From: a virus
Virus record (IMG/VR): IMGVR_UViG_3300045988_075126
Span: 32,001-96,000 of that record
Length of the DNA stretch: 64,000 bases
Direction: 5' to 3' (one strand)
Positions 4,155-59,716 of this stretch are shown piece after piece. The notes under the pieces are model-generated. The model ran no database searches. It was not told where the DNA came from and saw only the letters and a program-made list of their open reading frames with translations. The position numbers and the translations under genes are program-made. The first letter of the stretch is position 1; every line of letters begins with the position of its first letter.

Positions 4155-4197
4155 CAGTTGTTTTGGTGTGTCTCACCTTTTTAACAATGCAAAGATA
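4155..4197 (-). promoter_or_regulatory. promoter -7 box plus conserved leader hairpin motif (minus strand)
   Basis: Minus strand reads TATCTTTG (4197-4190), then GGTGAGACACACCAAAACAACTG (4177-4155). Upstream of the HAD phosphatase gene. Confidence 0.55.
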
Positions 4198-4245
4198 CGA
4201 CAAAACGGATATTCTTGCAAATAAATTAATGCAAATTTTGAATCG

Positions 4246-4590
4246 TTATCTGTTTTTAAAGAAATCATTAATAATTCTCGCAATAGCTTCTTGTTTGATG
4301 ATGATAGGGGCATCACCTTGATATTCTATCACTTGGCAACCGCATTCCTTCCAAAATAGAGTGCTATTTATGCGTTCTCCATCTACCAAGATCCAATCCG
4401 GATGATGTTCAAACGAATGCATCTTAGTTAGCGGAACGAGAATGAATAATTTATTCTCCATCTTGTTTACGAGTAACGACAAGTCATTATCATCAAATGT
4501 AATGATAACTCGATTTTCATTCTCAGATAGAACGTTAAAATCCTCATTAAAACGTTCATAAAGGTAATTTTTGATTTTCGAACAACTCAT
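4246..4590 (-). CDS. hypothetical protein (paralog family with 35772-36080 and 49581-49880)
   Basis: 114 aa. Shares the core LxVPLTKxHxF...VDGxRIxSxxFxK...Q with the two other ORFs. Confidence 0.65.
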   Translation of the reverse strand: MSCSKIKNYLYERFNEDFNVLSENENRVIITFDDNDLSLLVNKMENKLFILVPLTKMHSFEHHPDWILVDGERINSTLFWKECGCQVIEYQGDAPIIIKQEAIARIINDFFKNR

Positions 4591-4666
4591 ATTCTTGTAA
4601 TTTTATAGGAGGGCAGATGGAAAAATCCAAGGTCTGCCCGCCAAGTTAAACTTATAAGGAAATCTT

Positions 4667-5035
4667 CTATAATATCGACTGACAAAGCCATCCCATAAGA
4701 TAGCATGGTTCTTCGCCTTGCATATCTATTCCCAGATGGTTGCATATATGTGCTACTACATGAAACATTTCATGTGTGAGACTATTTATATACTCACCTT
4801 CAGAAGTAGACTTGCAAATGAGCACAACACTTGTTTTCTTTGAAACATTTGTGTATGTCAATCCTTTGTTTGAAGAATCGGTTGAAATGTGGTCGTATGC
4901 ATCCAATAATGGTTGCCCCTTACAATCAATGGAACTTAGTAAGTCCATAGCTTCGTCAACCTCTTCTTGATTAGCTACATGACATACAATCACATTCCAA
5001 TCGTATTTCTCCAAGTAAATTTCTTGTTTAATCAT
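4667..5035 (-). CDS. putative small HExxH metallopeptidase-like protein
   Basis: 122 aa with LTHEMFHVVAH (HExxH). No other motif recognised. Confidence 0.5.
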   Translation of the reverse strand: MIKQEIYLEKYDWNVIVCHVANQEEVDEAMDLLSSIDCKGQPLLDAYDHISTDSSNKGLTYTNVSKKTSVVLICKSTSEGEYINSLTHEMFHVVAHICNHLGIDMQGEEPCYLMGWLCQSIL

Positions 5036-5460
5036 AATACATCATCCCATGGAATGCCGATACCATTATGGTTGCAATCGGCATAAAATCTATTAAAAAT
5101 AAATCCGTCCGCTTGGTCTGGGTCATCCACCATATCCTTAATGAATTGAGCCAAAGCAGCTTCGTCCTTTAAAGAGGACTTAAAGAAATCGGCTCTAGCC
5201 ATGTTTGCGACATAGACGAAATCGTAATTGTCGGCATTCTCTAACTTTACGTTGTTGACTTTAAGAAGTTCCTCGACTGTATCTTTTTCTGTCGGTTCAA
5301 CTTTTTCGAGCTTACCAGTCGTTGCGTTTGTCTTGCGCATTAAGGTAATAGCCCAATCACACATCTTTTTATTGAAGTGCCAGCCATTGTAGCGAAGGTA
5401 TGCAATCATCCCTTCAGGCTTCATATCGTATGCGTCAAGTGGTATTTTGTATCTTCCCAT
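5032..5460 (-). CDS. hypothetical protein
   Basis: ORF track, 142 aa, 4-nt overlap with the downstream gene. Confidence 0.65.
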   Translation of the reverse strand: MGRYKIPLDAYDMKPEGMIAYLRYNGWHFNKKMCDWAITLMRKTNATTGKLEKVEPTEKDTVEELLKVNNVKLENADNYDFVYVANMARADFFKSSLKDEAALAQFIKDMVDDPDQADGFIFNRFYADCNHNGIGIPWDDVL

Positions 5461-5512
5461 AATAAAAGCTTTTAAAGGAGGTGGAGATTTCTCCCCACCT
5501 CAAAGTGTAATA

Positions 5513-5752
5513 CTAATAGCGATAACCGCCACCTCTGCGACCACCATGTCTTTCACCATAGCGGTCATCATCGTCATCATCCCAATTGTCTCGGTAATCC
5601 GGCATTGGGCTTCTGTGACCCATTCGTCCATACTTGTCATCCCCCATTTCATCAATGCAGTGCATGAGTTTACCACCATACTTAAGCATCTTCTCTACAA
5701 GTTCCGACATTTCATTTACCTTGTTTTCGGTAATTTCTATCATGTATCCCAT
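5513..5752 (-). CDS. small acidic protein with RGG/Y-rich tail
   Basis: 79 aa ending DDDDDDRYGERHGGRRGGGYRY. Last gene of a 4-gene minus-strand operon. Confidence 0.5.
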   Translation of the reverse strand: MGYMIEITENKVNEMSELVEKMLKYGGKLMHCIDEMGDDKYGRMGHRSPMPDYRDNWDDDDDDRYGERHGGRRGGGYRY

Positions 5753-5758
5753 AATGAT

Positions 5759-6277
5759 TTACTTTTTTGTATTAACTTTTTCCAAAGCCACTGACAACAT
5801 AGACTTAATATCGGTCAAAGTTCCCTTCATTCCGCTAACCTCGCTTTTGAGGTTATTGATGTCTTCTTCCTGTTGTCTGTCTTTGGCTATTTGTGGATTC
5901 AATACGGCACGCATCTTTGCGCACTCTTCCATAACCTTTTTGTGGTATGGCTCGCTTTCCACAATTTCCTTAGAATGCCGATACATAGCTTCAACTTCCG
6001 CATCCATAGCTTCACGGCTTTCAGAAACCACGAGGTTTTCCGAATTTGCAATTTGCATATTGGATGGGAGTTGTTTGAACTCCATTTGTTCATTAGGCAA
6101 TTTTACGACAACATCAACGGTAGTCTCCATTGGTTGTGGGTTGAATTGCCCAGGAGTATATGTCGGGAACTTAGGTTGTGGGTTACTGACCGACACAACC
6201 TGTCCGATTTTAAGACTTGGGTTTTCACCCTTGTCAAGCACATAGAATATGCTGTTAGGTCGAAGTCCTTGAAACAT
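5759..6277 (-). CDS. hypothetical coiled-coil protein
   Basis: ORF track, 172 aa. Overlapping + strand ORFs (5634-6245, 5873-6331) judged spurious. Confidence 0.6.
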   Translation of the reverse strand: MFQGLRPNSIFYVLDKGENPSLKIGQVVSVSNPQPKFPTYTPGQFNPQPMETTVDVVVKLPNEQMEFKQLPSNMQIANSENLVVSESREAMDAEVEAMYRHSKEIVESEPYHKKVMEECAKMRAVLNPQIAKDRQQEEDINNLKSEVSGMKGTLTDIKSMLSVALEKVNTKK

Positions 6278-6296
6278 AGCTTTGTAATGTTAATTG

Positions 6297-6641
6297 TTAA
6301 ACAATACCCGTCATTAGCTGAAGGGTGTTAGTATCTCGCTCGAACCAAAACTGATAAACTCCAGTTCCTGCAATGTCGGCTACCGTCAAAGGATTGCCGT
6401 TGAACTTAGTTACAGCTTGGGTTACGCCATTGGTCTCGAAAAGGATTGGCAGCGTATTTGTCGTACCTGTCGGAATGGCTTGATGTAGGTTCACAAAGAT
6501 AGTTCCCCTATAGTTAGCATTCACGAAGGCGTGGTTTCTGAACGAGAAAATGACATTTTCGGTGTTCACCACCACGCCTGTAGATGCGATAGCTGCCGAG
6601 CCGTTACGATTAACCCATGCAAAAGGTCTCATCCATAACAT
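6297..6641 (-). CDS. hypothetical beta-rich protein
   Basis: ORF track, 114 aa, N/T/V/G-rich. Operon position between 6660-7646 and 5759-6277. Confidence 0.55.
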   Translation of the reverse strand: MLWMRPFAWVNRNGSAAIASTGVVVNTENVIFSFRNHAFVNANYRGTIFVNLHQAIPTGTTNTLPILFETNGVTQAVTKFNGNPLTVADIAGTGVYQFWFERDTNTLQLMTGIV

Positions 6642-6659
6642 AGCAGCCTCCTTTCCTAA

Positions 6660-9132: not shown

Positions 9133-9139
9133 TTTTATT

Positions 9140-9203
9140 CAGTTTTTTATGGTGTGACTCACCTGTATTTGCAAAGGTAATGAGATTTTATTGATAGAGC
9201 AAA
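9140..9203 (-). promoter_or_regulatory. promoter (-33 TTTG, -7 TACCTTTG) plus leader hairpin motif (minus strand)
   Basis: Minus strand: TTTG (9203-9200), 20 nt, TACCTTTG (9179-9172), then GGTGAGTCACACCATAAAAAACTG (9163-9140), 7 nt before ATG 9132. Confidence 0.6.
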
Positions 9204-12760: not shown

Positions 12761-13528
12761 ATGGTTGCTTGTAGGGAAGAAAACAAACAAAAGAAAGAAG
12801 CTATGGGAGAAAGAAGACAAACAGAGGGCGATGAGCACAGAATCGTTGCAAAGCCAACTTATGAAGAGTTTGCAATGTATTGCTCGATGGCAGGTTTTAT
12901 GAAAGACAATCTAAAGTGGCTTTATGGTCGCTTCGATGATGTCGGATGGTTGCTACCAAGCGGTAAAGTCCCTAAGAAATGGGAGGATTTGGTCAAGAAA
13001 TGGAATTCCTTGAAGAACCCAAGCCAGACTTACCGCAAGCATGGTTTCAAGTTCAAGACCAAGGAAGAGAAGATGCACGACTGCTACGAAGTGTGGACAG
13101 ATGGTTCTGCGGTACTTAGGACTGATACCAAGCGAAGAAAGTATACTGGTGGTGCTGCCTATGTGATTTTACACGAAGGCAAGGTGTATAAGCAGGGAAA
13201 CTACGGAACTATAGACACGACAATTAGCCGTATGGAGCTTTTGGCAATCATTTGTGGTGTCGGTCATTGTCCACAGGGTGCGGCTGTGACGGTTCATAGT
13301 GATAGCCAATATGCACTTAAGACTTTGAGCGGTGTTTATTCTGCACACAAGAACTTAGACTTGATGGAGAAGTTTAGAAAGCATTCCGCTCATATAGCAC
13401 ACATCACTTGGCGCAAGGTGAAGAGTCACACAGGAGTTGAGTACAATGAGCTTTGCGACCGATTGGCGAACGAAGGTAGAATAGCTGCCGAGATAAAGGC
13501 AGGTTTAAGAGTAAATTCAAAAGCTTAG
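12761..13528 (+). CDS. rnhA: RNase HI fused to an N-terminal domain of unknown function
   Basis: C-terminal half has RNase H1 motifs: VWTDGSA, SRMELLAI, VHSDSQYA, KVKSHTG..NELCDRLA. True start uncertain. Confidence 0.75.
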   Translation: MVACREENKQKKEAMGERRQTEGDEHRIVAKPTYEEFAMYCSMAGFMKDNLKWLYGRFDDVGWLLPSGKVPKKWEDLVKKWNSLKNPSQTYRKHGFKFKTKEEKMHDCYEVWTDGSAVLRTDTKRRKYTGGAAYVILHEGKVYKQGNYGTIDTTISRMELLAIICGVGHCPQGAAVTVHSDSQYALKTLSGVYSAHKNLDLMEKFRKHSAHIAHITWRKVKSHTGVEYNELCDRLANEGRIAAEIKAGLRVNSKA

Positions 13529-15529: not shown

Positions 15530-15677
15530 GAATTTTAGAAGTTGCTTTTGTTGTATCCATTTCTTGGGATTACTAAATACTAGCGCAGGTAATGTTTTAA
15601 AATGCAAGAAAGGAAGCACTACGAAAGTACAAGGGAAGAGACTGACAGAAATCGCTGCAAGATGCAAAAATTACAAA

Positions 15678-15701
15678 GCGTGAGGCACACGTTAAAAACT
15701 G
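15678..15701 (+). promoter_or_regulatory. leader hairpin motif copy (CGTG variant)
   Basis: GCGTGAGGCACACGTTAAAAACTG. Followed 12 nt later by only a 10-codon ORF (ATG 15714). Confidence 0.5.
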
Positions 15702-15833
15702 AATTTGATTAATATGGTTACAAAAACTTTCAAGTGTTTGAACGCATAAAATGCAAAAATCTACTAAATGAATGGTTGTATTAATGCTTAAAGATTAAAA
15801 TACTTTAAACACGTATATAAATACATTAAATAA

Positions 15834-15915
15834 CTTGCATATTTCGAGATTTGTTTGTATCTTTGCAATGTAATTAAGAGACAAATTTAAATGGTGAGAC
15901 ACACCACAAAAACTG
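15834..15915 (+). promoter_or_regulatory. promoter-leader cassette (CTTG -33, TATCTTTG -7 at 15858-15865, hairpin motif 15893-15915)
   Basis: ACATTAAATAACTTGCA-20 nt-TATCTTTGCAATG...GGTGAGACACACCACAAAAACTG, 6 nt before ATG 15922. Confidence 0.65.
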
Positions 15916-15921
15916 GAGATA

Positions 15922-22796: not shown

Positions 22797-22868
22797 GTGT
22801 TAACGTCAGTGAATTATTAATTTATATTATTATAGTGTGTTAAAAGATAAAAGAAATACATTAAATAA

Positions 22869-22958
22869 TTTGCATGTTTCGGATATTCTTTGTATCTTTG
22901 CATCGTAGTTAAGAAACAAGGTTACTAATTAAAAAGGTGAGACACACCATAAAAACTG
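22869..22958 (+). promoter_or_regulatory. promoter-leader cassette (TTTG -33, TATCTTTG -7 at 22893-22900, hairpin motif 22936-22958)
   Basis: TTTG-20 nt-TATCTTTGCATCG...TTAAGAAACAAGGTTAC...GGTGAGACACACCATAAAAACTG, 10 nt before ATG 22969. About 90% identical to 52798-52919. Confidence 0.7.
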
Positions 22959-33144: not shown

Positions 33145-33153
33145 TTATATAAA

Positions 33154-33172: not shown

Positions 33173-33179
33173 AAAAATT

Positions 33180-37718: not shown

Positions 37719-37746
37719 CAGATGTAAACAATAAAACAATGAGCTT

Positions 37747-38151
37747 ATGAAAGTATTATCAATTCGCCAGCCGTATGCTTGGTTAATCGCTATCGGCTGC
37801 AAGACCATTGAAAACAGAACCTGGAATAGAAAGTTCCGTGGTCGTTTCCTTATTCATGCTAGCCAAGCCAAACCCGAAAAACTTGACGGATGGCAGGAGA
37901 GCGCAATGAAGAAATATTGCCAAGAGCATGGTATTGTTATTCCGGACTTCAAAGACTTGCCAACGTCAGCCATTATCGGCAGCGTAGAGTTGGATGATAT
38001 TCAATTCCATGAGGCTTATCCGGATGCGTTTGCTGAAGATTTTCAGTATCACTGGTTCTTGAAGAATGCTAAATTGTTCGATGAGCCGATTAGAAACGTC
38101 AAAGGCAAGTTGTTCCTCTGGGATTATGAGTACAATGAAGCTGAAAAGTAA
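37747..38151 (+). CDS. ASCH (PUA-like) domain protein
   Basis: MKVLSIRQPYAWLIAIGCKTIENRTWNRKFRGRFLIHAS matches the ASCH pattern SI.QPWA..I..G.K..E.R. Confidence 0.65.
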   Translation: MKVLSIRQPYAWLIAIGCKTIENRTWNRKFRGRFLIHASQAKPEKLDGWQESAMKKYCQEHGIVIPDFKDLPTSAIIGSVELDDIQFHEAYPDAFAEDFQYHWFLKNAKLFDEPIRNVKGKLFLWDYEYNEAEK

Positions 38152-39700: not shown

Positions 39701-42700
39701 ATGGCAGAACTAGAATTTAACCTCCGAGCGAATTTCTCCCAAATCAAGGAAGCCAAGGAAGAGCTTGAAAGATTGCGTGGTGAATTGTTGAAGACTTCGA
39801 GAGCGACAGATAAATCTGTGGTTCAAGACCTCACGGATAAATATGCTGAACAAAAGCGTAAAGTAACCGAATTAAGCGAAGCAATGGGTCGTTATGCTAT
39901 GGTAACGAGCAGCGATTATGCAAAGAAAATGCAATCTTTGACACGGGAAGTATATGCTTTTGAATTGCAAGCCGACTCGTCCAGGCGAAAGATAGAGAAG
40001 CTTTCCAATGAGATAGCGAAGATGGAAAGCAAAATGCGCAGAGGTGGTCTTGATGTAGGAACAAGCGCAATTCTTTCTGATAACATATCATCCGGCTATG
40101 CCTCGTTGAAAGACGAAAAGGCTAGACTGGAGAATCTTACTGGATTAGGCAAGCAAGCGAGACAAGAGTTACAGAATATGCAAACGGAATATGCTAAGTA
40201 TTCGGGTTCTGTGTCTCCTGCTAAGGATATGACCAATCAAATGACAAATGCATTTGCCCAAATGATTGCTGAAATGAAGCAAGCTCCTACAGTCGGTGAA
40301 GGTATTTCCTCATTGTTTGGTCGTTTGAATGGTGACGCAAGACAACTAGCTATGAGTTTAGTTGGTGGTCTGGGCTTTGAACAATTGGCTGAGCACATCT
40401 TTAACGTTCGCTCTCAATTCCAACAATTGGAGATTTCTTTTACAACAATGTTGGGTAGTGAGCAAAAGGCTGGTGCGCTTATGGATGAACTTATCCAAAC
40501 TGCTGCTCGCACACCTTTCAACATGACAGACGTTACTGAAGGCGCAAAACAACTCTTAGCATATGGAATACAAGCCAATGAAGTAAATGACACCTTGGTA
40601 CATTTGGGTGATATAGCTTCTGGCCTTAATATTCCTTTGTCGCAGCTTGTTTATTTGTACGGCACGACCATTTCGCAAGGAAGAATGTTTACAATTGATT
40701 TGCGTCAATTCATGGGTCGAGGCATTCCGATGGCCGAGACCTTGGGGCAAATTATGGGTAAGACCGTATCCCAAGTGCAAGAGGCTGTAACGAAAGGTGA
40801 AGTCGGTGCAGATCTTGTGAAAGAAGCGATTGTGAAGATGTCAAGCGAGGGCAGCAAATTCGGAGGCTTGATGAACAAGCAAGCCGAAACCCTTCAAGGT
40901 CGTTGGTCGAACATAGAAGATACGATAGACCAAGCAATCAACTCTATAGGACAAAAGACACAAGGAATCTTTGGAACAGGTCTTGACTTAATATCTTCTC
41001 TGATAGAGAATTGGGAAACTTTGGTTAAAGTTATTGGTTCAGCGGCTGTTATGGTCGGAACTTACAAAGCTGGCTTGATGGCAGCGGCAAGCATTCAGAA
41101 GGTTCAGAATGCTATGACAATGGCATCAATCACAGAGGAACTTGATTCTAAGTTAGGAGAGGCAAGAGACCAAGAAAACAACTTCCGTTCCTTAAATGGT
41201 AAAGACACCAAGCAGTATCGGGCAAATAGATACAAGGCTTTAGGTGATGCTATTGCCGATACGTCAAACATTGGTGATGATAAGACAGAGGAAATCGTTT
41301 CAAAGCAAATTGAGATGGCGAGGAACGAGGGTCTTATCACCGAGCAGATGGCTCAACAACTCCAAACAAAGCGAGATTTATTGGTTGCCCAGCAAAAGGC
41401 TGCTGATAATGAGCGCATGGAGTATGAGAACGCAAAGCGGACAAAAGAAATAGAAGAGGAAGCCGCACGACAAAAGAGAGCCGATGCGGAAATGGCTGCT
41501 GAAATTAACGCAAAGGCTGCAAAGAAAGCCACTATAGACGAGGCTAATAATACTCCTTTGGGTAAGGCTATTCTTAACACAAATGCTATAGAGGAAAAGA
41601 AAAAACTGGCAGAAGCAAGCATCGAATTTGCCAAAGAAGAGGCAAGGGAACAACATGGAATTGTAGAGGAAATCGGTGCTCAAATCAAGAAGCAAGAAGA
41701 ACTTGTAGCCGCAAAAAAGGAGCAGGTAAAGTCTTCATACCAAGATGTGATTGATTTGGGCGGTTATGATGATGGCTTTGGTGATGATTTGAAATTACGA
41801 GACCAAGCAGTAAATCAATATGTGGCTGAGCAGCAAAAGTTGAACGACCTCAAACAGAAGAGTTACGAGGCTTCTCAAAAGGCATATCTCGCAGACCAAA
41901 AAGTATTGGGTATGCAAGAAGACCTTAAAGGTGTAACCCAAGAGCTTAATCAAGCTATAGAGGAGGAAAACCGAATCTATGGAGAAACTGGCTCTAATGC
42001 GGACGAGATAAACAAGCTGGTGAATGAGGGGGTTGCGGCAAAAGAGGGCGATACGGCTGCGGTTAATGCAAATACTACTGCCAAACAAGGGAATACGACA
42101 TCTGAGAATGCGAACTCTGCGGCACGAAACGCTAATGCCGGAGCTACTACAAGACAAACTGCATCAAATGCAGCAAACACAACCACAGAGAATGTTAATT
42201 CAGCGGCTACCGGAGCGAATACGACTTCTCAAAACGTGAATACAAGTGCGAAGCAACGCAATTCCTTTGTTACAAGCATGATGTCAGTTGGTACAAAGGC
42301 TGCGACCTTGGCTCAATCGGCTTTTTCGTGGGCAACCAATGCGTTGACAACGAGCTTGCGTAGTCTTTGGGCTACTATGGTTTCTAATCCATTGACTTCT
42401 GTCATTACTTTAGTGAGCACAGCTATTTCTGTATTCTCTTTGTTTGGTGACGAAACGGAAGATGTTGCGACCAAGACTGCAAACATGGGGAATAAAGCAT
42501 CTGAGGCAAGTGCTAAGGTTCGTTCCTTGTTTGCTATCTTGGGGGCCGGCAAGGATGCGGAAAACCACAAAGAGACAATAGATGCATTGAAAAGCGCATA
42601 CGAAGAGTATGGCGTAAAGCTCGATGAAACAATTATGAAGTCCGAAAACGAAGCTTCAAAGGTACAAGAGCTGATGAAGCATAAGGAAGATTTGATAGGC

Positions 42701-45700
42701 GTTATCGAAGAGCAAACTATTGCCATGGAACATCAAAATGCCGTACAGCAAGCGTATGACGATTATAATACCAGTAAGAATTCCGCAAAGATGGATTTTC
42801 AGGAGGCAACTAAAGGCGTGCTTACAAGTGATCAAGCTGCGTTTGCCACCATTGCGGTAAAGGATGAAGATTTAGATAAACTTATCGAATTAAGCAAGAA
42901 ATATAAGGAAGTTAGAGACAATTCGGAAGAAATGTACAAACTCAACCAGCAGTATGCTTCTGTCATGGATAAGGTTTCCGAAGGTGTAATGAGATATTAT
43001 AAAAACCTTCATCTTTCTGATGAACAAATAAGAAGTATAACGGGAGCAACAAATGAATACATTTCTACTATTACCCATTCAAAGGAAGCGTTAAATGAGA
43101 GGGTTAAATCTGAGAACAAAGCTAAAGTTGCAGCGGAGAATGCTAGTAAAGAGGTAAGAAAGCTTTCAGATAGTACAAAGGAGAATGCCGAACGTAACAG
43201 GTTGGCGAAAAAGTCATTTAAGGAAATGGCTGTTGAAATGGATGAAATCCGAAAGATTTGTGAAAGAACTTATCATATGAAAATCAAGGTGGACTATGAC
43301 GATAAGTCATTGCCCGCTTGGATTAAGAATATGTCTCAGAGCCAAAGGGCAGGAAGTGCAAGAGCAAGATTGGCATGGTTGAAAACCCATAAGCCGGGAG
43401 ATACAACAAAGAAGTTTGGTGGAACTAATAAGAATTATTGGACTATTTATAATGAAAGCCGAGGGCTTCAATACAAGGGGGAAAAGGTAGAGAGTACACC
43501 AACCGAGACTGAGGCTCAGAGAAAGAAACGTCTCGCTGCTGAAGCTAAGAAAAAACGTGAAGCGGAACGTGCGGCAACTAAGGCAGAGCGTGAAGCAAAT
43601 CAAAAGGAAACGATGGCTGGTAATAAGCGCAAGGCAGAGGAGGACTATGCTAAGTCTATTTCTTCCTATTCGGAGAAAGCCAGTGATGAGTTGTCAAAGC
43701 GAAGAACGGAATTGATTAAGAATGAGACCGAAAAGGAGATTGCTCAAATTAATATGTCTTCAGACAAGGAGAAAAAGGCTATAGAGGATTCGATTGACAA
43801 ACTCGTTGAGGCTAAGAAGAAGAAAGACCAGATTGTTTGGGTAAATTCGGGAAAAGGTCGTAAAGCCAGCATGTGGAAACAGGGTAAGTCCGATGCGGAA
43901 TACCGCAAAGAGGTATTGGGCACACAAATGGTTGACGACAAGGGTAATCATCTTGGGAAGACCATTGGACAGAACTCTGAAGACCAAATTGCCTTGATTG
44001 AGAAACAGAGGCAATTAAAGCTGAAGGAAATCCAGCAAGCGGAGATAAAGGACATGTTGGATTTCATGAAGCAATACGGCAGCTTAGAACAACAACGTTA
44101 TGCTATTGTAAAAGAATACACGGACAAGATAGACCTTGCAAGAGAAAAGGGAGATACTTTTGGTGCAGCGAACGCTGAAATGGAGATGAACGACCAGTTG
44201 AAGAAGTTGAATTTTTCGGATTTCAAGGATTCTATCAATTGGGATGTTGTCTTTCAGGATATGAACCGATTGAGTATTCCTTATCTTGAAGACCTTCGCA
44301 AGAAGATGAAGGAGTTGCTTGGTTCGGGTACGTTGGAAATTGATGACATGAAAACCGTATCTGACCAAATCTACAAGATTGATGATGCGATTTCCGAGCA
44401 GAAGGATAGATGGGGATTGGTTAATGATGCAGTCCGTGAACACCGTAGGCTTATTGATGAGGCGAAGGATGCGCAAGACCGATTGGCACAAGCTAGAAAG
44501 GTGGAGTTTGATGCCAAGGCTGACAACATGAGCCAAAGGAGAAAAATCCAAGGTGTGTTTGCGGAAAGTGGGATTAATATAGATACCAGTAATATTACTT
44601 CTGCCAATAAGGACAGACTAATGGGTTCTACCAAAAATCTCAGTGTAAGCCAAACGGAGAAGTTACGTAAGCTTTTTGATGATTTGGCGGTTTCAGAGGT
44701 TAAGGTTGGAAAGGCAACAAAGGAAGTCGGAAAGGCGCAGGAAGAAGCCAAGGTAAAGCAGGATGCCGCAAAGAAGAGCTTGCACGATACTATCGAGGAA
44801 TGGGCTGAGGGTTTGAGTAAAATCCAAGAGAAACTAAAAGACCTTCCTGGGTTAGTCGATGCTTTGGGTCTCGGAAACACAGGCTTTGGTAAAGCTGTGA
44901 ATAACGGAATGGATGCATTGAACAGTGGAACACAAGCCTTTTCTGATTTTGCAAGCGGAAACTACATAGGCGCAGCTATGAATGGAATAAAAACCATTGG
45001 TTCGTTGGGCAAGATGTTCGGTATTGGTGGAGGTAATGGTGCAGAAGTTGCGAAGAAAACTGAAGAGCTGACCGAGAGCAATGACAGATTGATGTATTCC
45101 ATTGATAAGTTAAAAGAGTCTATTGACAAATCTTCCGGTTATACAGCCGTCAGCAACTATAATGCTGCTTACGATGCTCAAAAGCAGGTTAACACCCAAA
45201 CGATGGATATTCTCAAAACACAAATGGGGTATCATGGTGCACACCATTCAAATGCTTATTATTGGAATCTTTCTGCACAAGATTATGCGGCAATCAATAA
45301 GACTTTGGCACAGCAATCGGCAGTCAGAGGCGGTTATACCAATTCTTCGATAAACAAGGTTAATTCCTTGGAGGATATATACAAGCTCACTCCAGAGCAG
45401 ATGGCTGACATTCGTACACATAATGCGGATGTATGGAAGAACATGACCGACCAAGGCAAGTATGATAAGACGGAATATTGGGAGCAATATACAGAACTGG
45501 CGGGAAAACTAGAGGAGTTGACGGAGCAAATCAATGAGAATTTGACTCAAACAACCTTTGATTCGATGAAGAGTGACTTCATAAACAATCTTATGGATAT
45601 GAGCAAGTCTGCAAAGGATTTTTCTAATGACTTCACTACAATGCTCAGCCAGTCGATGCTCAACTTCGCTTTGGGAGACCTTATGAATAAAAAGCTTAAG

Positions 45701-46234
45701 CCTCTTTATGAGAGCTGGGCAAACAAGATGAAGGAGAATGGAGGAAGGCAGCTCACGCCAACCGAATTGAATAATCTTAAAGAAGAGTATGATAAGATAG
45801 TTCAAGAGGGTTTGGCTATTCGTGATAATATTGCTGATATTACGGGTTACAAGCAATCTTACGAGCAGTCCGCTTCTTCCGGTTCTTTTGAATCAATGAG
45901 CCAAGATACAGGAGAAGAGTTGAATGGTCGTTTCACAGCGGTACAAATTGCTACAGAGGGAACGTATGAGGAAACAAAGCTCATAAATACCAAGTTGGAT
46001 GCTATTGCGGCTCGTGATGGTGGCACAGAGGGTAGCTTATTAACGGCTAGCGTGAATACCATTATGGGTAATGTAGGTAATATATGGGTTGCCGTTGATG
46101 AGGGAAGAACCATTCTTGCACAAAGCTTGATGTACTTGCAGTCGATAGATGAGCGACAAGAAAGCTGGAATAAGCATATTTTACTGATGAGCCGTAATCT
46201 TGACACTATCAAAAACAAGGTGGATAGGTTGTAA
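39701..46234 (+). CDS. tape-measure-like giant protein (2177 aa)
   Basis: Contains the TMP core pattern TTMLGSEQKAGALMDELIQTAARTPFNMTDVTEGAKQLLAYGI...LVHLGDIASGL...LVYLYGTTISQGRM. Long coiled coils. An N/T/A/S-rich repeat region (nt ~42058-42260) is followed by hydrophobic segments. Confidence 0.8.
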   Translation: MAELEFNLRANFSQIKEAKEELERLRGELLKTSRATDKSVVQDLTDKYAEQKRKVTELSEAMGRYAMVTSSDYAKKMQSLTREVYAFELQADSSRRKIEKLSNEIAKMESKMRRGGLDVGTSAILSDNISSGYASLKDEKARLENLTGLGKQARQELQNMQTEYAKYSGSVSPAKDMTNQMTNAFAQMIAEMKQAPTVGEGISSLFGRLNGDARQLAMSLVGGLGFEQLAEHIFNVRSQFQQLEISFTTMLGSEQKAGALMDELIQTAARTPFNMTDVTEGAKQLLAYGIQANEVNDTLVHLGDIASGLNIPLSQLVYLYGTTISQGRMFTIDLRQFMGRGIPMAETLGQIMGKTVSQVQEAVTKGEVGADLVKEAIVKMSSEGSKFGGLMNKQAETLQGRWSNIEDTIDQAINSIGQKTQGIFGTGLDLISSLIENWETLVKVIGSAAVMVGTYKAGLMAAASIQKVQNAMTMASITEELDSKLGEARDQENNFRSLNGKDTKQYRANRYKALGDAIADTSNIGDDKTEEIVSKQIEMARNEGLITEQMAQQLQTKRDLLVAQQKAADNERMEYENAKRTKEIEEEAARQKRADAEMAAEINAKAAKKATIDEANNTPLGKAILNTNAIEEKKKLAEASIEFAKEEAREQHGIVEEIGAQIKKQEELVAAKKEQVKSSYQDVIDLGGYDDGFGDDLKLRDQAVNQYVAEQQKLNDLKQKSYEASQKAYLADQKVLGMQEDLKGVTQELNQAIEEENRIYGETGSNADEINKLVNEGVAAKEGDTAAVNANTTAKQGNTTSENANSAARNANAGATTRQTASNAANTTTENVNSAATGANTTSQNVNTSAKQRNSFVTSMMSVGTKAATLAQSAFSWATNALTTSLRSLWATMVSNPLTSVITLVSTAISVFSLFGDETEDVATKTANMGNKASEASAKVRSLFAILGAGKDAENHKETIDALKSAYEEYGVKLDETIMKSENEASKVQELMKHKEDLIGVIEEQTIAMEHQNAVQQAYDDYNTSKNSAKMDFQEATKGVLTSDQAAFATIAVKDEDLDKLIELSKKYKEVRDNSEEMYKLNQQYASVMDKVSEGVMRYYKNLHLSDEQIRSITGATNEYISTITHSKEALNERVKSENKAKVAAENASKEVRKLSDSTKENAERNRLAKKSFKEMAVEMDEIRKICERTYHMKIKVDYDDKSLPAWIKNMSQSQRAGSARARLAWLKTHKPGDTTKKFGGTNKNYWTIYNESRGLQYKGEKVESTPTETEAQRKKRLAAEAKKKREAERAATKAEREANQKETMAGNKRKAEEDYAKSISSYSEKASDELSKRRTELIKNETEKEIAQINMSSDKEKKAIEDSIDKLVEAKKKKDQIVWVNSGKGRKASMWKQGKSDAEYRKEVLGTQMVDDKGNHLGKTIGQNSEDQIALIEKQRQLKLKEIQQAEIKDMLDFMKQYGSLEQQRYAIVKEYTDKIDLAREKGDTFGAANAEMEMNDQLKKLNFSDFKDSINWDVVFQDMNRLSIPYLEDLRKKMKELLGSGTLEIDDMKTVSDQIYKIDDAISEQKDRWGLVNDAVREHRRLIDEAKDAQDRLAQARKVEFDAKADNMSQRRKIQGVFAESGINIDTSNITSANKDRLMGSTKNLSVSQTEKLRKLFDDLAVSEVKVGKATKEVGKAQEEAKVKQDAAKKSLHDTIEEWAEGLSKIQEKLKDLPGLVDALGLGNTGFGKAVNNGMDALNSGTQAFSDFASGNYIGAAMNGIKTIGSLGKMFGIGGGNGAEVAKKTEELTESNDRLMYSIDKLKESIDKSSGYTAVSNYNAAYDAQKQVNTQTMDILKTQMGYHGAHHSNAYYWNLSAQDYAAINKTLAQQSAVRGGYTNSSINKVNSLEDIYKLTPEQMADIRTHNADVWKNMTDQGKYDKTEYWEQYTELAGKLEELTEQINENLTQTTFDSMKSDFINNLMDMSKSAKDFSNDFTTMLSQSMLNFALGDLMNKKLKPLYESWANKMKENGGRQLTPTELNNLKEEYDKIVQEGLAIRDNIADITGYKQSYEQSASSGSFESMSQDTGEELNGRFTAVQIATEGTYEETKLINTKLDAIAARDGGTEGSLLTASVNTIMGNVGNIWVAVDEGRTILAQSLMYLQSIDERQESWNKHILLMSRNLDTIKNKVDRL

Positions 46235-48511: not shown

Positions 48512-48624
48512 TTTGTTATATCACATAAAAGCGTTATCTTTGCATCGTGATTAAGAAACAAAGGTCACAATAACATTATTAATTTAGTTGAGGTTGCACC
48601 TCCGAGTCGGCACTCGTAAAACGG
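48512..48624 (+). promoter_or_regulatory. promoter (TTTG -33, TATCTTTG -7 at 48535-48542) plus variant leader hairpin (48602-48624)
   Basis: TTTG-19 nt-TATCTTTGCATCGTGATTAAGAAACAAAGGT...CCGAGTCGGCACTCGTAAAACGG, 9 nt before ATG 48634. Confidence 0.6.
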
Positions 48625-49519: not shown

Positions 49520-49526
49520 TAGATTT

Positions 49527-49547
49527 CGTGAGGCACACGCTAAACTG
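49527..49547 (+). promoter_or_regulatory. leader hairpin motif copy (CGTG variant)
   Basis: CGTGAGGCACACGCTAAACTG, 33 nt before ATG 49581. Confidence 0.5.
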
Positions 49548-49580
49548 CACCGGACTTTGAACATTAAATATTTAAGAGAT

Positions 49581-49880
49581 ATGGATAAGAATTTGAAGGA
49601 TGCTCTTTACGTTGAGCATGATGGCAAGATTGGCGTTTTAAGCTCAGATGAGCGCAAGGTGGTATCACAGGTTATCGGTACGGATTTGACGCTTGTGTAC
49701 GACAAGAAAGAGGGTGATACATACCTTTTGATACCATTGACCCGAAACCACAAGTTCGAGTGCAAAGGTAGCCACATTATCGTGGATGGAAAGCGGTTCG
49801 ATTCTGACATCTTTTTCCGCAAGGATGCTTGCCAATGGATTCAGATGCAATCTAAAGAAATGCTATCAATGGTAGCGTAA
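49581..49880 (+). CDS. hypothetical protein (paralog of 35772-36080 and 4246-4590)
   Basis: Internal ATG (MDKNLKDALYVEH) of ORF 49509-49880. The upstream part of the track ORF covers the leader motif. Confidence 0.6.
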   Translation: MDKNLKDALYVEHDGKIGVLSSDERKVVSQVIGTDLTLVYDKKEGDTYLLIPLTRNHKFECKGSHIIVDGKRFDSDIFFRKDACQWIQMQSKEMLSMVA

Positions 49881-49890
49881 CAATATATAA

Positions 49891-49926
49891 GGTGAGGCAC
49901 ACCGAAACAACTGCACATTATCTTTG
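49891..49926 (+). promoter_or_regulatory. leader hairpin motif copy followed by a -7 box (TATCTTTG 49919-49926)
   Basis: GGTGAGGCACACCGAAACAACTG (49891-49913), then TATCTTTG. A 25-codon Arg-rich ORF (49954-50031) follows. Confidence 0.45.
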
Positions 49927-50331: not shown

Positions 50332-51210
50332 ATGACATTAGAATTTAACAAAACTGATGTAAATGTAGAGGCTTTACCAGTAGTCTCAGAGTTCCTTAAC
50401 AATGAAAAGAGAGGTATTGAAGTTGTAGAGATTATCGAGCATGACGGCAAACAAGCCGTGAACGCAAGGGAGCTGCACCAAAAGTTGGGCAGTAAGCAAG
50501 ACTTTTCAACATGGATTAAAAATCGCATAGAAAAGTATGGATTCGTTGAAAATCAAGATTTTGAAGTTTTCCACAAAATTATGGAAAACTCAAATGGTGG
50601 TCGAAGTCGTATTGAGTATGCCTTATCTTTGGATATGGCAAAGGAGTTGTGTATGATTGAGAACAATGAGCAAGGTAGATTGTTCCGTAAGTACTTCATC
50701 GAAGTCGAGAAAGCTGCCAGAGTCAAGTACGAGCAGGAGAAGCTGGACAAGAAGGCTTCCGATTCCTTTGACATCAAGCTGAAGTGGTTGAACTTTCTTC
50801 CTGGTTATCTGAACCTCAGCGATGTTTCCAAATTGGCGATGGCTAAGAAAATTGCTGAACCATTAGGGTTGCCGACACCTGATTATGTGAGCGCACCGAA
50901 TGGTGCAAAGCATTCCGCTACGGAGTTATTGAAATCTCATGGTGTAGGCTTGTCTGCTCGAAAGTTCAATGAGTTGGCGGTAAAGGCAGGATTATTGAAA
51001 CTAAAAGAGCGCAAGGGTACGAACAAGGTACACAAGTATTGTGAGATTACCAAGAAAGGATTGGCTTATGGTGAGAACGACATCAACGAGAAGAATATGA
51101 ATCAAACACAACCACATTGGTATGATTCTAAATTTGGGGAGGTATTGGAAATCATCGGCTACAAGTCTTCCAGGCAAGTAGATATGTTTGCAAGCGGTGA
51201 GACACACTAA
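50332..51210 (+). CDS. antirepressor-like protein (AntA/ORF6N-type N-domain)
   Basis: VNARELHQKLGSKQDFSTWIKNRIEKYGFVENQDFEV matches the phage antirepressor N-terminal pattern. 292 aa. Confidence 0.65.
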   Translation: MTLEFNKTDVNVEALPVVSEFLNNEKRGIEVVEIIEHDGKQAVNARELHQKLGSKQDFSTWIKNRIEKYGFVENQDFEVFHKIMENSNGGRSRIEYALSLDMAKELCMIENNEQGRLFRKYFIEVEKAARVKYEQEKLDKKASDSFDIKLKWLNFLPGYLNLSDVSKLAMAKKIAEPLGLPTPDYVSAPNGAKHSATELLKSHGVGLSARKFNELAVKAGLLKLKERKGTNKVHKYCEITKKGLAYGENDINEKNMNQTQPHWYDSKFGEVLEIIGYKSSRQVDMFASGETH

Positions 51211-51218
51211 GACAACTG
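51196..51218 (+). promoter_or_regulatory. leader hairpin motif copy overlapping a stop codon
   Basis: GGTGAGACACACTAAGACAACTG spans the last codons and the TAA (51208-51210) of the antirepressor gene. Confidence 0.45.
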
Positions 51219-51245
51219 TAGTAATATTGATATATAATCGAGAAG

Positions 51246-51281
51246 GAGGGGAATGCGTGATGCACTCTCCTCTTTTTTTTA
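51246..51281 (+). terminator. probable intrinsic terminator
   Basis: GAGGGG/CTCCTC stem followed by an 8-nt T-run (51272-51280). Confidence 0.45.
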
Positions 51282-51339: not shown

Positions 51340-51371
51340 TTTGGTAGAGTGGAATATAATAGCTATCTTTG
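51340..51371 (+). promoter_or_regulatory. promoter (TTTG -33, TATCTTTG -7)
   Basis: TTTG(51340-43)-20 nt-TATCTTTG(51364-71), 27 nt before ATG 51399. Confidence 0.55.
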
Positions 51372-52301: not shown

Positions 52302-52772
52302 ATGAAGAAGAAAGCCAAGCAAATAGCCAATGTGATGAGCAATGACTCTTTGGAGGTTGTTGCTCAGATGATTGTTGATGAGGCTAAAGGTGTGCGCTAT
52401 GAAGTGTATGCTGATGGCTCTAGTAAGAACAACAAGTGTGGTTGCGGTTGGCTTGTGCTTCATAAGGGAGCGATTATCAATAGTGGGAAATATACATTTA
52501 TCACAGCCAAAGTGAACGATTCGGTGAGAGCCGAAATAAGGGCGGTCATTCAAGCATTGGGTGATTGCCCTCCTTTGTGTTCTGTTGATGTATATGTGGA
52601 TTGCCAAGTGGCTATAGAGAGAATACAGGCTTGCAAGTTAGGAGACTTACAGCCTATATATAATAAGGTAGCGAAAGGCAAGGTGATAAGATACCATTGG
52701 GTTAAGGCTCATAGAGGTAATATGTATAACGAAATGGTGGATTCTTTGGCTTTTTCTGCTACAGAAAGTTAA
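52302..52772 (+). CDS. rnhA: RNase HI
   Basis: VYADGSS, VRAEIRAVIQAL, VDVYVDCQVA, HWVKAHRGNMYNEMVDSLA: RNase H1 D-E-D-(H)-D order. Confidence 0.75.
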   Translation: MKKKAKQIANVMSNDSLEVVAQMIVDEAKGVRYEVYADGSSKNNKCGCGWLVLHKGAIINSGKYTFITAKVNDSVRAEIRAVIQALGDCPPLCSVDVYVDCQVAIERIQACKLGDLQPIYNKVAKGKVIRYHWVKAHRGNMYNEMVDSLAFSATES

Positions 52773-52827
52773 TTTTGTGCCTACATATATAATAAGCGTT
52801 AAAATATAAAAGAAATACATTAAATAA

Positions 52828-52918
52828 TTTGCATATTTCAATAATTCTTTGTATCTTTGCATCGTAATTAAGAAACAAGGTTACTAATTTTAAAAGGTGA
52901 GACACACCGTAAAAACTG
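52828..52918 (+). promoter_or_regulatory. promoter-leader cassette (TTTG -33, TATCTTTG -7 at 52852-52859, hairpin motif 52896-52918)
   Basis: About 90% identical to 22839-22959. GGTGAGACACACCGTAAAAACTG sits 9 nt before ATG 52928. Confidence 0.7.
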
Positions 52919-52927
52919 TGATTCGTT

Positions 52928-53178: not shown

Positions 53179-53195
53179 ACATTATAAATTTAGAA

Positions 53196-53216
53196 CGTGA
53201 GACACACGTAAAACTG
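53196..53216 (+). promoter_or_regulatory. leader hairpin motif copy (CGTG variant)
   Basis: CGTGAGACACACGTAAAACTG, 10 nt before ATG 53227. Confidence 0.5.
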
Positions 53217-53226
53217 TATTGAAAAA

Positions 53227-58542: not shown

Positions 58543-58615
58543 GCTGCATTAGACAAGTGGTTAAGTCGCCAGCTTTTCACGCTGGTATTCAAAGGTTCGA
58601 ATCCTTTATGCAGTA
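58543..58615 (+). tRNA. tRNA-Glu: tRNA-Glu (anticodon TTC)
   Basis: Manual cloverleaf: acceptor GCTGCAT/ATGCAGT, D-loop with GG, anticodon stem CCAGC/GCTGG, loop TTTTCAC, T-arm AAAGG-TTCGAAT-CCTTT. 73 nt, no encoded CCA. Confidence 0.8.
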
Positions 58616-58621
58616 CTAAAT

Positions 58622-58692
58622 TGCCCTATGGTGTAATGGCAACACTACAGGTTTTGGTTCTGTCATTAGTGGTTCGAATCCACTTGGGGCAA
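58622..58692 (+). tRNA. tRNA-Gln: tRNA-Gln (anticodon TTG)
   Basis: Acceptor TGCCCTA/TGGGGCA (U1-A72), D-arm GTGT/ACAC, anticodon stem ACAGG/TCTGT, loop TTTTGGT, T-arm AGTGG-TTCGAAT-CCACT. 71 nt. Confidence 0.8.
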
Positions 58693-58722
58693 CGAGGAGG
58701 AATAGGAGTATGTTCCACAAAT

Positions 58723-58807
58723 GGTGCGATATTCAAGCGGTTAAAGAAGATTGACTGTAAATCAATTCCCATAGCGGGTTCGGTGAGTTCGAATCTCCCT
58801 TGCACCA
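58723..58807 (+). tRNA. tRNA-Tyr: tRNA-Tyr (anticodon GTA), long variable arm
   Basis: Acceptor GGTGCGA/TTGCACC, anticodon stem ATTGA/TCAAT, loop CTGTAAA, 16-nt variable region, T-arm GTGAG-TTCGAAT-CTCCC (one mismatch). 85 nt. Confidence 0.7.
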
Positions 58808-58829
58808 CAAGTACTTTTGTCATATTACA

Positions 58830-58902
58830 AGGAATGTAGCTCAGTAGTAGAGCACTTGGCTTGGTAACCAAGGGGGCGTTGGTGCAAATCCAACCATTCC
58901 TT
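58830..58902 (+). tRNA. tRNA with 8-nt anticodon loop CTTGGTAA (Thr-GGT-like with an extra U; identity uncertain)
   Basis: Acceptor AGGAATG/CATTCCT, D-arm GCTC-AGTAGTA-GAGC (no GG), anticodon stem CTTGG/CCAAG enclosing 8 nt, T-arm GTTGG-TGCAAAT-CCAAC (atypical T-loop). 73 nt. Confidence 0.55.
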
Positions 58903-58905
58903 TAC

Positions 58906-58977
58906 GCTTTCGTAGCTCAGTGGCAGAGCATAGGATTTTTAATCCTAGGGTCGAAGGTTCGAATCCTTCCGTTGGCA
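58906..58977 (+). tRNA. tRNA-Lys: tRNA-Lys (anticodon TTT), imperfect acceptor stem
   Basis: D-arm GCTC-AGTGGCA-GAGC, anticodon stem TAGGA/TCCTA, loop TTTTTAA, T-arm GAAGG-TTCGAAT-CCTTC. Acceptor GCTTTCG/CGTTGGC has two central U.U mismatches. Confidence 0.55.
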
Positions 58978-59159
58978 CAATGATACACAAGAAGAGAGCC
59001 GTGATGTTTGTCCTATTGGAATCTCGGACATCTTTCAACGGGTAAACGTAGGAAGCAGATGGGACGAATAAAGTTGCGAATAAGTCTATGAACTAGGGAG
59101 ACAAGCGGAATGGTTCTCTTTTGTGTTTCGTTTGATGGTTTTACGAAAATTAGAAGAAT

Positions 59160-59429
59160 ATGAAAAGTCCGCTAAGAATGGCAGTCGCTTTAGAGAAGAA
59201 TAATAAAGTATATCCGAAAGATGTACGGAAGTTCTTGATGGGATTGTACGCCACGCTGCATTTGACAGATAACGCAACGGCTAAAGATATGGAAAAGGTG
59301 GTTTATTATGCTTTTCGGAATGGCTATCTGCTAGGTGTTAAGTCTGAAGGTGGTGATGACCAAAAAGCGTATGACAGACTGCCGGATTTGGGAGTAGAAG
59401 AAGATATTGGTGATGATTTAAGAAGATAG
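59160..59429 (+). CDS. hypothetical protein
   Basis: ORF track, 89 aa. Confidence 0.55.
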   Translation: MKSPLRMAVALEKNNKVYPKDVRKFLMGLYATLHLTDNATAKDMEKVVYYAFRNGYLLGVKSEGGDDQKAYDRLPDLGVEEDIGDDLRR

Positions 59430-59463
59430 TTGATAAAATTGGTAATTAGTTAGTAAAGTTTTT

Positions 59464-59497
59464 AGGCTTTGGTGTGTGAACATCGAAGCCTTTTTTA
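59464..59497 (+). terminator. intrinsic terminator
   Basis: 11-bp stem AGGCTTTGGTG(59464-74)/CATCGAAGCCT(59481-91) followed by TTTTTT. Confidence 0.7.
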
Positions 59498-59588
59498 TAT
59501 ATAATAAGGTATATAAAGAGGGTAATTGTTAATAAAGTGCATATATCAGTTACCGTAAGTTAAATATATAAAGAAAAACATTAAAATG

Positions 59589-59716
59589 CTTGCATGTTTC
59601 AAAACTTATTTGTATCTTTGCATCGTCAATCAAGATAAGTTGGTTGATTTGCCGAGTGACAAGTTTCACTCAATAAGGTGAGAGCGACACCAAGGGGTAA
59701 GACCCGAAACAACTAG
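59589..59716 (+). promoter_or_regulatory. promoter-leader cassette (CTTG -33, TATCTTTG -7 at 59613-59620; hairpins 59653-59670 and 59677-59691)
   Basis: ACATTAAAATGCTTGCA-20 nt-TATCTTTGCATCG...GAGTGA..TCACTC...GGTGAGAGCGACACC...GAAACAACTAG, 11 nt before ATG 59728. Confidence 0.6.

Follow-up and report, generated by a model that had tools for sequence, protein, structure and literature searches.

What is a 13-nt hairpin doing, again and again, a few nucleotides ahead of start codons in a phage genome? The question is raised by a 64,000-nt stretch of viral DNA (positions 32,001-96,000 of IMGVR_UViG_3300045988_075126, hereafter the window), in which a short stem capped by an AGACA-type loop and followed by the tail AAAACUG recurs on both strands. 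An earlier examination of the same letters, the sequence-only reading, had noted the repeat and offered a translation-initiation or RNA-stability element, an antitermination site, a protein operator or a cassette boundary as explanations. We establish here the structure, conservation, placement and distribution of the motif. Comparison of the sequences indicates that its best reading is a small RNA module in the 5′ leaders of phage and other mobile-element genes, located 5′ of the ribosome-binding region, and we infer that it acts as RNA, after transcription, positively, and via a host component. That the motif is a post-transcriptional leader element read by some trans-acting factor is likely, its probability being roughly the sum of those of the three post-transcriptional readings weighed below.

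Structure and covariation of the hairpin-tail motif

With at most one mismatch allowed, we counted 11 occurrences of the core GTGAGNCACAC in the window, where 0.64 are expected. A scan for structure, requiring a stem of 3 bp or more, an AGNCA loop and ACTG no further than 8 nt away, returned 12 matches against 0.92 in Markov shuffles; the match at 34102 (-), which is absent from the 11 canonical copies, is probably due to chance. A covariance model made from 50 units, mostly of related loci, and run on the window without filters found the same 11 sites (E = 8e-7 to 0.023), the next match having E = 3.1. About 16 copies had originally been claimed; the model and inspection of the loci leave the 11 canonical ones, whose coordinates, strands and ATG distances were correct on recheck, as was the covariation between GGTG/CACC stems and the CGTG/CACG stems at 15678, 49527 and 53196. 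The other five sites are not members. Of the two proposed looser variants, the site at 37434-46 is the tip of a long perfect hairpin following a promoter, and the one at 58524-38 was missed by the covariance model scan of the window. The hairpins at 34532 and 48602, taken for a second type of the motif, form a separate leader family with one protein family downstream. All 11 canonical copies are sense to the flanking genes, including the two on the minus strand, where genes and GC skew flip too, and 10 of them are intergenic (Table 1).

Each unit consists of an A-rich 5′ flank, 2-3 free base pairs, a G-C closing pair, an A-G-N-C-A loop, 1-4 free bases and AAAACUG. Because the search pattern preset the closing pair and every loop base but the third, only this base was free to vary; according to position-frequency tables, 87% of the Bacteroidota units carry A there, 10% G and 1% U. 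Pairing ends after 3-4 bp, and pair counts show none beyond four pairs. The 5′ arm is always G-rich and resembles a Shine-Dalgarno (SD) sequence (GGAG, GGUGA), and the 3′ arm is C-rich. Isolated hairpins are predicted to be marginal (-1 to -3 kcal/mol).

We measured covariation in 76 distinct units picked by loop and tail only. Compensatory changes occur in three of the four stem pairs: 90.5% of the cells are paired, compared with 67% in shuffles, and the covariation score is 0.523, which none of 500 shuffles reached (0.131 in shuffles) and which dropped to 0.16 or less when the partner columns were slid. The pair beside the closing pair is U-A in 36 units, G-C in 31 and A-U in 6, while the outermost pair takes six standard pair types. 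At the third pair, G-U mismatches outnumber A-C mismatches by 7 to 4, too few cases for judging which strand folds. The compensatory changes thus extend far outside this genome, in agreement with the proposal that the hairpin is under selection. Counts and covariation, together with the positional conservation described below, exclude chance and recent duplication as the origin of the motif copies.

Placement before start codons in two phyla

The exact Bacteroidota form is present in more than 118 stretches of IMG/VR contigs (60-135 kb), in genomes of Prevotella, Segatella and Hoylesella isolates and of one Chitinophagaceae isolate, and in metagenome-assembled genomes (MAGs) of Rikenellaceae, Ignavibacteria and freshwater Bacteroidetes. 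A database search for isolated phages with the promoter-plus-motif region yielded only four unannotated faecal contigs. Among 129 distinct instances, the distance from ACUG to the ATG of an open reading frame (ORF) of at least 40 codons shows a sharp peak at 9-10 nt (48/129), and ACUG stands within 3-11 nt of such an ATG in 72; some apparent exceptions have a GTG start or a very short ORF downstream. A TAnnTTTG -7 box lies within 120 nt upstream of 66% of the instances, at two preferred distances from the motif (5-19 nt and 33-37 nt), and none is found for the remaining 34%. In orthologous leaders the hairpin, the A-run, ACUG and the distance to the ATG are constant and the 2-nt linker drifts, a pattern that in sequence terms marks purifying selection both on the element and on where it stands. 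The proposed link to start codons is thereby upheld, the copies being more than duplicates scattered without regard to position. Within the window it applies to most copies, those at 49891 and 51196 having no plausible adjacent gene start.

The genes downstream of Bacteroidota-type instances fall into 31 unrelated protein clusters and include TnpB-like, ArdC-like anti-restriction and DUF6876 genes. The copies in Prevotella isolates have mobile-element modules for neighbours, with amidoligase, SNF2, PAPS-reductase/DUF3440, ParB-like, RadC and Mob_Pre genes. No copy beside a core host gene was found among the instances examined, no systematic search having been made. The motif is consequently not phage-specific, as had been suggested, since non-phage mobile elements have it as well, ahead of ArdC, DUF6876, amidoligase, SNF2, RadC and Mob_Pre-neighbourhood genes.

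Two sets of loci deserve separate mention. Five loci (L121, L129, L140, L159 and L168) share a near-identical element in which the motif precedes an ArdC-like gene, a gene for a 72-aa Cys-rich ORF and DUF6876 each; the corresponding MAGs are assigned to Rikenellaceae, Ignavibacteria and freshwater Bacteroidetes, a spread that suggests either a very mobile element or binning artefacts. In related phages (L020 and 10 related loci), ACUG lies 16 nt before the ATG of a TnpB/OrfB_IS605-family gene (378 aa), so that a transposon-associated nuclease gene appears, on sequence grounds, to use the same leader module.

A role at the DNA level, as a duplex operator, a single-stranded DNA hairpin (for priming or as a single-strand promoter) or a cassette-exchange boundary, would be consistent with several of these observations: motif orientation flips along with GC skew and gene direction, ORF 49581-49880 has a copy on either side, and ArdC, RadC and amidoligase belong to conjugative-element modules that enter the cell as single strands. 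We nevertheless regard it as very improbable. The free, covarying stem, the asymmetric loop and the variable spacer to the tail misfit a double-stranded operator, and the exact placement before start codons and SD sequences is left unexplained. The cassette-boundary idea found no specific support, because for recombination the surrounding 97-nt promoter-plus-leader repeats (the D1 repeats, Table 1) offer a better substrate than a hairpin of 13 nt. These repeats do resemble the T4-type PeSL (promoter-early stem-loop) cassettes, being promoter and stem-loop modules that flank small ORFs in plastic genome regions; PeSL stem-loops, however, are terminators and recombination substrates, whereas the motif has no U-tract, spans 13 nt and keeps its loop across phyla.

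The genome scan also matched contigs of Lachnospiraceae, Eubacterium, Blautia, Ruminococcus and Erysipelotrichaceae. Searching for two tandem units, independent of stem sequence, we found such units in at least 120 viral stretches, in arrays of 2-4 units with a period of 24-30 nt, most commonly 25 nt. CRISPR repeats alternate with unique ~30-nt spacers; units spaced in this way leave only 4-7 nt between them and hence have no spacers. Among the matches listed, the loop is AGACA in 253 of 253 Firmicutes units, carried on at least 23 different stem sequences, and 113 of 113 arrays lie between a terminator and the SD of a scaffold gene. The leader runs in the order Rho-independent terminator, stem-CGAA-stem hairpin, AAACUAC, array, AAAGGAG SD, ATG. 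All 113 downstream proteins belong to one family, a head scaffolding protein (phrog_2303, E = 1e-38), encoded in an SPP1-like order (portal, head-morphogenesis protein, scaffold, capsid). The array-bearing Firmicutes loci contain no motif units elsewhere in 1.13 Mb, and no sigma-70-type promoter was found between terminator and array in the one leader scanned, L187. The arrays also dispose of the suggestion that the element makes up for missing SD initiation in Bacteroidota: the same loop and tail precede an AAAGGAG SD in Firmicutes phages. A Bacteroidota-confined SD substitute was rejected for this reason.

The stem-CGAA-stem hairpin directly after the terminator (L187 5074-5098 and equivalents) covaries in its own right, with GCC/GGC, GUC/GAC, GCUC/GAGC and GCCC/GGGC stems, and together with AAACUAC it may be a further conserved part of the Firmicutes scaffold leader.

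The confinement of the Firmicutes copies to the scaffold gene is one argument for a translational operator, in which an RNA-binding protein of the mobile element would bind loop and tail and block the ribosome-binding site, shutting off an early-gene regulon in the Bacteroidota phage and serving scaffold autoregulation in Firmicutes phages. The P22 scaffold gene autoregulates after transcription, and the motif shares with the T4 RegA, MS2 and PP7 coat-protein and P22 scaffold operators a site that adjoins or overlaps the ribosome-binding site. It further shares many target genes per genome with RegA, fixed loop bases with MS2, and a scaffold gene under post-transcriptional control with P22. 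In the motif, too, the site touches the ribosome-binding region, many unrelated genes of one genome carry it, the fixed loop bases are typical for protein operators, and an ORF at 37747-38151 has an ASCH domain, a predicted RNA-binding fold and the sole possible RNA binder found by Pfam and PHROGs scans of about 60 window ORFs. We still consider an operator somewhat unlikely. Phage operators normally co-diverge with their protein, while loop and tail are here fixed over two phyla and several kinds of mobile element. Moreover, comparing all window ORFs with the ORFs of the Firmicutes loci (BLASTP and phmmer) revealed no consistent common protein family, which argues against a shared phage-encoded partner, and the window's pre-capsid gene falls outside the Firmicutes scaffold family.

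The placement data bear equally on a transcription-elongation signal, according to which the hairpin and an A-rich segment ending in U-G would pause RNA polymerase or load a Nus-type factor or antiterminator. Two-thirds of the Bacteroidota copies lie just downstream of a promoter, as this reading would have it, and the universal NusA would explain conservation across phyla. The rrn leaders have the same hairpin-then-single-stranded order, pause sites end in pyrimidine-G, and further likenesses are found in boxB/nut, HK022 put, rrn boxB-boxA leaders and RNA-binding NusG paralogs. Like the lambda and P22 nut sites, the motif combines a short (4-5 bp) hairpin with a conserved pentaloop and a single-stranded element in phage leader RNA, presumed to meet a trans-acting factor as boxB meets the arginine-rich N protein. 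Its order is reversed, however, its AGACA loop differs from the G-first, GNRA-like pentaloops (GAAAA, GACAA), and it is present in 11 copies per 64 kb, some of them within operons, as against two nut sites. No boxA (CGCUCUUA-like) or CUCUUU element stands next to the hairpin, flank frequency tables showing only A-rich sequence and AAAACUG. Its position is anchored to the ATG and not to the promoter, and the Firmicutes arrays follow terminators instead of preceding them. Most copies have a hairpin-to-U distance of 6-9 nt, which falls short of the 10-12 nt of hairpin-stabilised pauses. These points make the nut/boxB explanation a poor fit, and an elongation signal of any kind seems quite unlikely.

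Candidate partners and modes of action

Given that the hairpin is weak while its loop and tail are invariant, something must read them. We tentatively favour a conserved host partner that would act at translation initiation, in mRNA protection or in both, with a positive effect, and a translation-initiation or RNA-stability role, among those first put forward, therefore continues to be the best one. A conserved host partner is favoured because loop and tail keep one form in both phyla and in several kinds of mobile element, with no protein family common to the window and the Firmicutes loci, and a translation-level role because in either phylum it is the ribosome-binding region that fixes the position of the motif, and neither the promoter nor the end of the transcript. 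A positive effect is favoured because the strongest consensus promoters accompany the motif and because it is multiplied before the scaffold gene, whose mRNA has to get past a terminator and still furnish a very abundant protein. In the mechanism we propose, the nascent leader would fold into the hairpin, and loop and tail would be read together by one trans-acting partner conserved across phyla, which most likely belongs to the core components of the host, at or near the 30S subunit, and is not a phage protein. Its binding would raise the output of the downstream gene by favouring initiation, by protecting the mRNA, or by both, and the tandem copies before the scaffold gene would multiply the effect for a highly abundant virion-assembly protein.

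The closest parallels in position are the cryIIIA STAB-SD, the SP82 polypurine stabiliser and standby sites, leader elements just upstream of the ribosome-binding site that raise the expression of very abundant proteins and whose purine-rich, SD-like character recurs in the 5′ arms of the motif. They have neither a conserved hairpin loop nor an AAAACUG tail, and the motif is also present in non-SD Bacteroidota. An RNA processing or stability site is a further reading: an endoribonuclease could cut near hairpin and tail and leave mRNAs with short, defined leaders, or the bound element could block 5′-end-dependent decay in the manner of such stabilisers. Some copies stand between cistrons and after terminator-like hairpins, others right where predicted transcripts begin (5-9 nt past the -7 box), the 5′ arms are G-rich and SD-like, and the syntax recalls that of Cas6-type sites, a hairpin with an 8-nt handle. 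On the other hand, the hairpins are too weak to stop nucleases alone, a passive stabiliser needs no invariant loop, no candidate nuclease is common to both phyla, and the distance from the predicted 5′ end is highly variable. This makes a processing or stability site an unlikely explanation.

As to which host component might be the partner, the G-AGACA-C formed by loop and closing pair is identical to positions 324-330 of E. coli 16S rRNA, which are predicted to fold as a CUG-AGACA-CGG hairpin at the tip of helix 13. We assume that the rRNA sequence around this loop (ACUGAGACACGG, adjoining the 341F primer site on its 5′ side) is shared by Bacteria in general, Bacteroidota and Firmicutes included. 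The two hairpins have in common the same pentaloop and closing G-C pair on a short stem. They differ in that the rRNA hairpin has no 3′ AAAACUG tail, AACUG being its 5′ arm, and in that the phage motif varies at loop position 3 and the rRNA loop, presumably, at position 4. GAGACA occurs in addition at 23S 940, 23S 2597 and 16S 1041. Complements in E. coli rRNA are scarce: CAGUUU(U), which would pair with the tail, is absent, and UGUCUC occurs once, at 23S ~1991, presumably inside a helix, so that base-pairing of loop or tail with rRNA was set aside. The loop identity is suggestive at the level of sequence. One doubtful extension of the host-partner reading is that a copy of the helix 13 loop, with AAAACUG, constitutes a portable expression signal independent of the host phylum, which would engage the core translation apparatus or ribosome biogenesis. 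If this were true, mobile-element genes could be translated efficiently in both SD-free Bacteroidota and SD-dependent Firmicutes. Docking on helix 44 has been reported for the loop of helix 13 (Tran et al. 2011, FEBS J 278:4405, cited in bioRxiv 10.64898/2026.05.08.718354).

Several points weigh against a positively acting host-partner element and its helix 13 variant. The ACUG-AUG geometry differs between the phyla, with 9-10 nt in Bacteroidota and ~10-25 nt with an SD between in Firmicutes. Two of the 11 window copies (49891 and 51196) have no adjacent gene start, and one is 58 nt away from it. The choice of activation over repression is a guess from the association with consensus promoters and the scaffold gene. 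The loci compared are parts of genomes, and a common phage RNA-binding protein may be encoded elsewhere in those genomes. The identity to helix 13 could be a coincidence (rough a-posteriori p ~0.005). Helix 13 lies at the 30S body, a long way from where the mRNA exits, and in mature ribosomes the site on helix 44 at which it docks is already taken. An analogy with S20 autoregulation was rejected, because the leader of E. coli rpsT, whose protein product binds near helix 13, lacks a hairpin of this kind.

Other identities were tried and rejected. The motif is not an intrinsic terminator, its tail being A-rich without a U-tract and its hairpin reaching only the marginal stability given above, nor is it an SD sequence, since the position is taken by ACUG after an A-run and the Firmicutes leaders have a separate AAAGGAG after the motif. 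A tail-loop pseudoknot as in preQ1-I-type riboswitches was dismissed because CUG or ACUG would find nothing to pair with in the 5-nt loop and no Rfam match was obtained. A possible likeness of the tail to GAAAACU, the 3′ half of boxA in Gram-positive rrn leaders, was set aside as well. A metabolite riboswitch is implausible for a 13-nt hairpin with 11 copies in the window and dozens of unrelated genes downstream.

A scan of the whole window with Rfam 15 at gathering threshold returned only five tRNAs and DUF805b, leaving the motif unmatched; ten Firmicutes loci gave nothing, and permissive scans of one Bacteroidota and one Firmicutes leader gave chance-level matches only. A literature search by sequence and keywords found no paper on the motif. 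Short leader hairpins that a factor recognises are a familiar kind of element, but as a family the motif appears undescribed. Its unusual features are the invariance across phyla, the tandem form in scaffold leaders and the identity to an rRNA loop.

The presence of the same 20-nt module in Segatella/Prevotella phages, in Bacteroidota mobile elements with anti-restriction genes and, in tandem before the scaffold gene, in well over 100 Firmicutes phage contigs points to a conserved partner and to a general expression device of mobile elements, one missing from present RNA-family catalogues. For Bacteroidota and their phages, in which start codons are chosen without an SD, a sharply placed invariant leader element provides a concrete handle on this choice. 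Should the motif boost or gate expression, it would also be of use as a genetic part when gut Bacteroidota and Clostridia are engineered.

The window and its other leader elements

The window is part of the genome of a large siphovirus-type phage, with genes for tape-measure and major head proteins (Table 1), five tRNAs, homing endonucleases, methyltransferases and an antirepressor. Near-identical leaders occur on contigs binned with Segatella copri, which makes Segatella/Prevotella the probable host. The Bacteroidetes-type promoter TANNTTTGCA is found 30 times in the window, where 5 are expected. The D1 repeats, four in number, are up to 91% identical and comprise a -33 TTTG, a -7 TAtcTTTG and a conserved transcribed segment, CGTRATTAAGAAACAAGGTTAC, ahead of the hairpin; D1-type leaders are present in many related contigs.

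Table 1. Motif copies, related leader elements and other features of the window (scores are those of the covariance model unless stated otherwise)
Feature	Positions	Strand	Sequence	Score	Context
Canonical copy	4154-4179	-	GGUG-AGACA-CACC + AAAACAACUG	33.0 bits, E = 6.8e-6	12 nt past -7 box 4188-4197(-); ATG of PNK3P-phosphatase gene 58 nt downstream
Canonical copy	9139-9165	-	GGUG-AGUCA-CACC + AUAAAAAACUG	30.7 bits	8 nt past -7 box 9170-9179(-), therefore at or near predicted transcript 5′ end; ATG for 213-aa helix-turn-helix protein 7 nt downstream
Canonical copy	15677-15702	+	CGUG-AGGCA-CACG + UUAAAAACUG	32.1 bits	No consensus promoter; 10-codon ORF begins 12 nt downstream
Canonical copy	15891-15916	+	GGUG-AGACA-CACC + ACAAAAACUG	34.4 bits	After D1-family promoter (-7 box 15858-15867); ATG of 103-aa ORF 6 nt downstream
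Canonical copy, top score	22934-22959	+		36.8 bits, E = 8e-7	After D1-family promoter (-7 box 22893-22902) and conserved leader CGUAGUUAAGAAACAAGGUUAC; ATG of 86-aa ORF 10 nt downstream
Canonical copy, 3-bp stem	33151-33173	+	GUG-AGUCA-CAC + AAAAACUG	24.9 bits	Inside operon; ATG of HNH endonuclease gene 7 nt downstream
Canonical copy	49525-49548	+	CGUG-AGGCA-CACG + CUAAACUG	25.5 bits	ATG of 99-aa ORF 33 nt downstream; spacing kept in 5 orthologous loci
Canonical copy, orphan	49889-49914	+	GGUG-AGGCA-CACC + GAAACAACUG	27.7 bits	Sole following ORF has 25 codons, 40 nt downstream
Canonical copy, weakest	51194-51219	+	GGUG-AGACA-CACU (outermost pair G-U) + AAGACAACUG	18.7 bits, E = 0.023	Overlaps antirepressor stop codon; terminator next, no gene start
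Terminator-like hairpin	51226-51280		GAGAAGGAG...CTCTCCTC then T8		Directly 3′ of preceding copy; followed by thymidylate-synthase-like gene (ATG 51400) with its own promoter-like box 51363-51370
Canonical copy	52894-52919	+		35.5 bits	After D1-family promoter (-7 box 52852-52861); ATG of 73-aa ORF 9 nt downstream; arrangement recurs in 27 orthologous loci
Canonical copy	53194-53217	+	CGUG-AGACA-CACG + UAAAACUG	34.0 bits	Preceded by terminator-like hairpin; 27-codon ORF begins 10 nt downstream
Divergent relative at best	59677-59716	+	GGUG..CACC stem, 7-nt loop, extra GGGUAAGACCC hairpin, then GAAACAACUAG	Below detection	After D1-family promoter; ATG of amidoligase gene 11 nt downstream
D1 repeats, 97 nt	15804-15900; 22839-22935; 52798-52894; 59559-59655				Promoter plus leader
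Second leader type	34532-34555	+	GAGU-CGGC-ACUC + GUAAAACGG		ATG 9 nt on
Second leader type	48602-48624	+			Paralogous copy of 34532
Long near-perfect GC-rich hairpin	37413-37459	+	CCCAAGGTGGGAGG...CCTCCCTTGG		Right after promoter 37402-37411, before ORF 37476-37727
DUF805b RNA (RF02914)	37552-37584	-		42.7 bits (Rfam; gathering 35.6)	Just past promoter, -7 box 37606-37615(-)
tRNA	58829-58903	+		62.4 bits (Rfam)	Within five-tRNA cluster 58543-58978
Tape-measure protein	39701-46234				2177 aa
Major head protein	62865-63953
RNase H-domain proteins, two	12761-13528; 52302-52772
ASCH-domain protein	37747-38151

The second leader type, also seen in loci L289-L365, is present in more than 118 viral stretches, where the gene that follows it invariably belongs to one small protein family (MTTSIKN.../MATTLRK...). 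It has another hairpin upstream and one compensatory variant (GUGU/ACAC), and it shares with the main motif a common syntax of hairpin, AAAAC, ~9 nt and AUG. A similar arrangement is known from Bacteroidales 5′-UTR hairpins in Rfam such as DUF805b, which likewise place a short hairpin and a conserved tail just past a Bacteroidetes-type promoter, with a sequence and loop different from those of the motif; the window has one such RNA.

Among the remaining features, the long hairpin at 37413 may be a leader structure or an attenuator. Two RNase H-domain proteins and the ASCH-domain protein are also encoded in the window. One tRNA of the five-tRNA cluster was assigned a four-base anticodon (tggt) by ARAGORN and is a normal tRNA by Rfam; either the call is mistaken or this may be a frameshift-suppressor-like tRNA whose anticodon loop has 8 nt.

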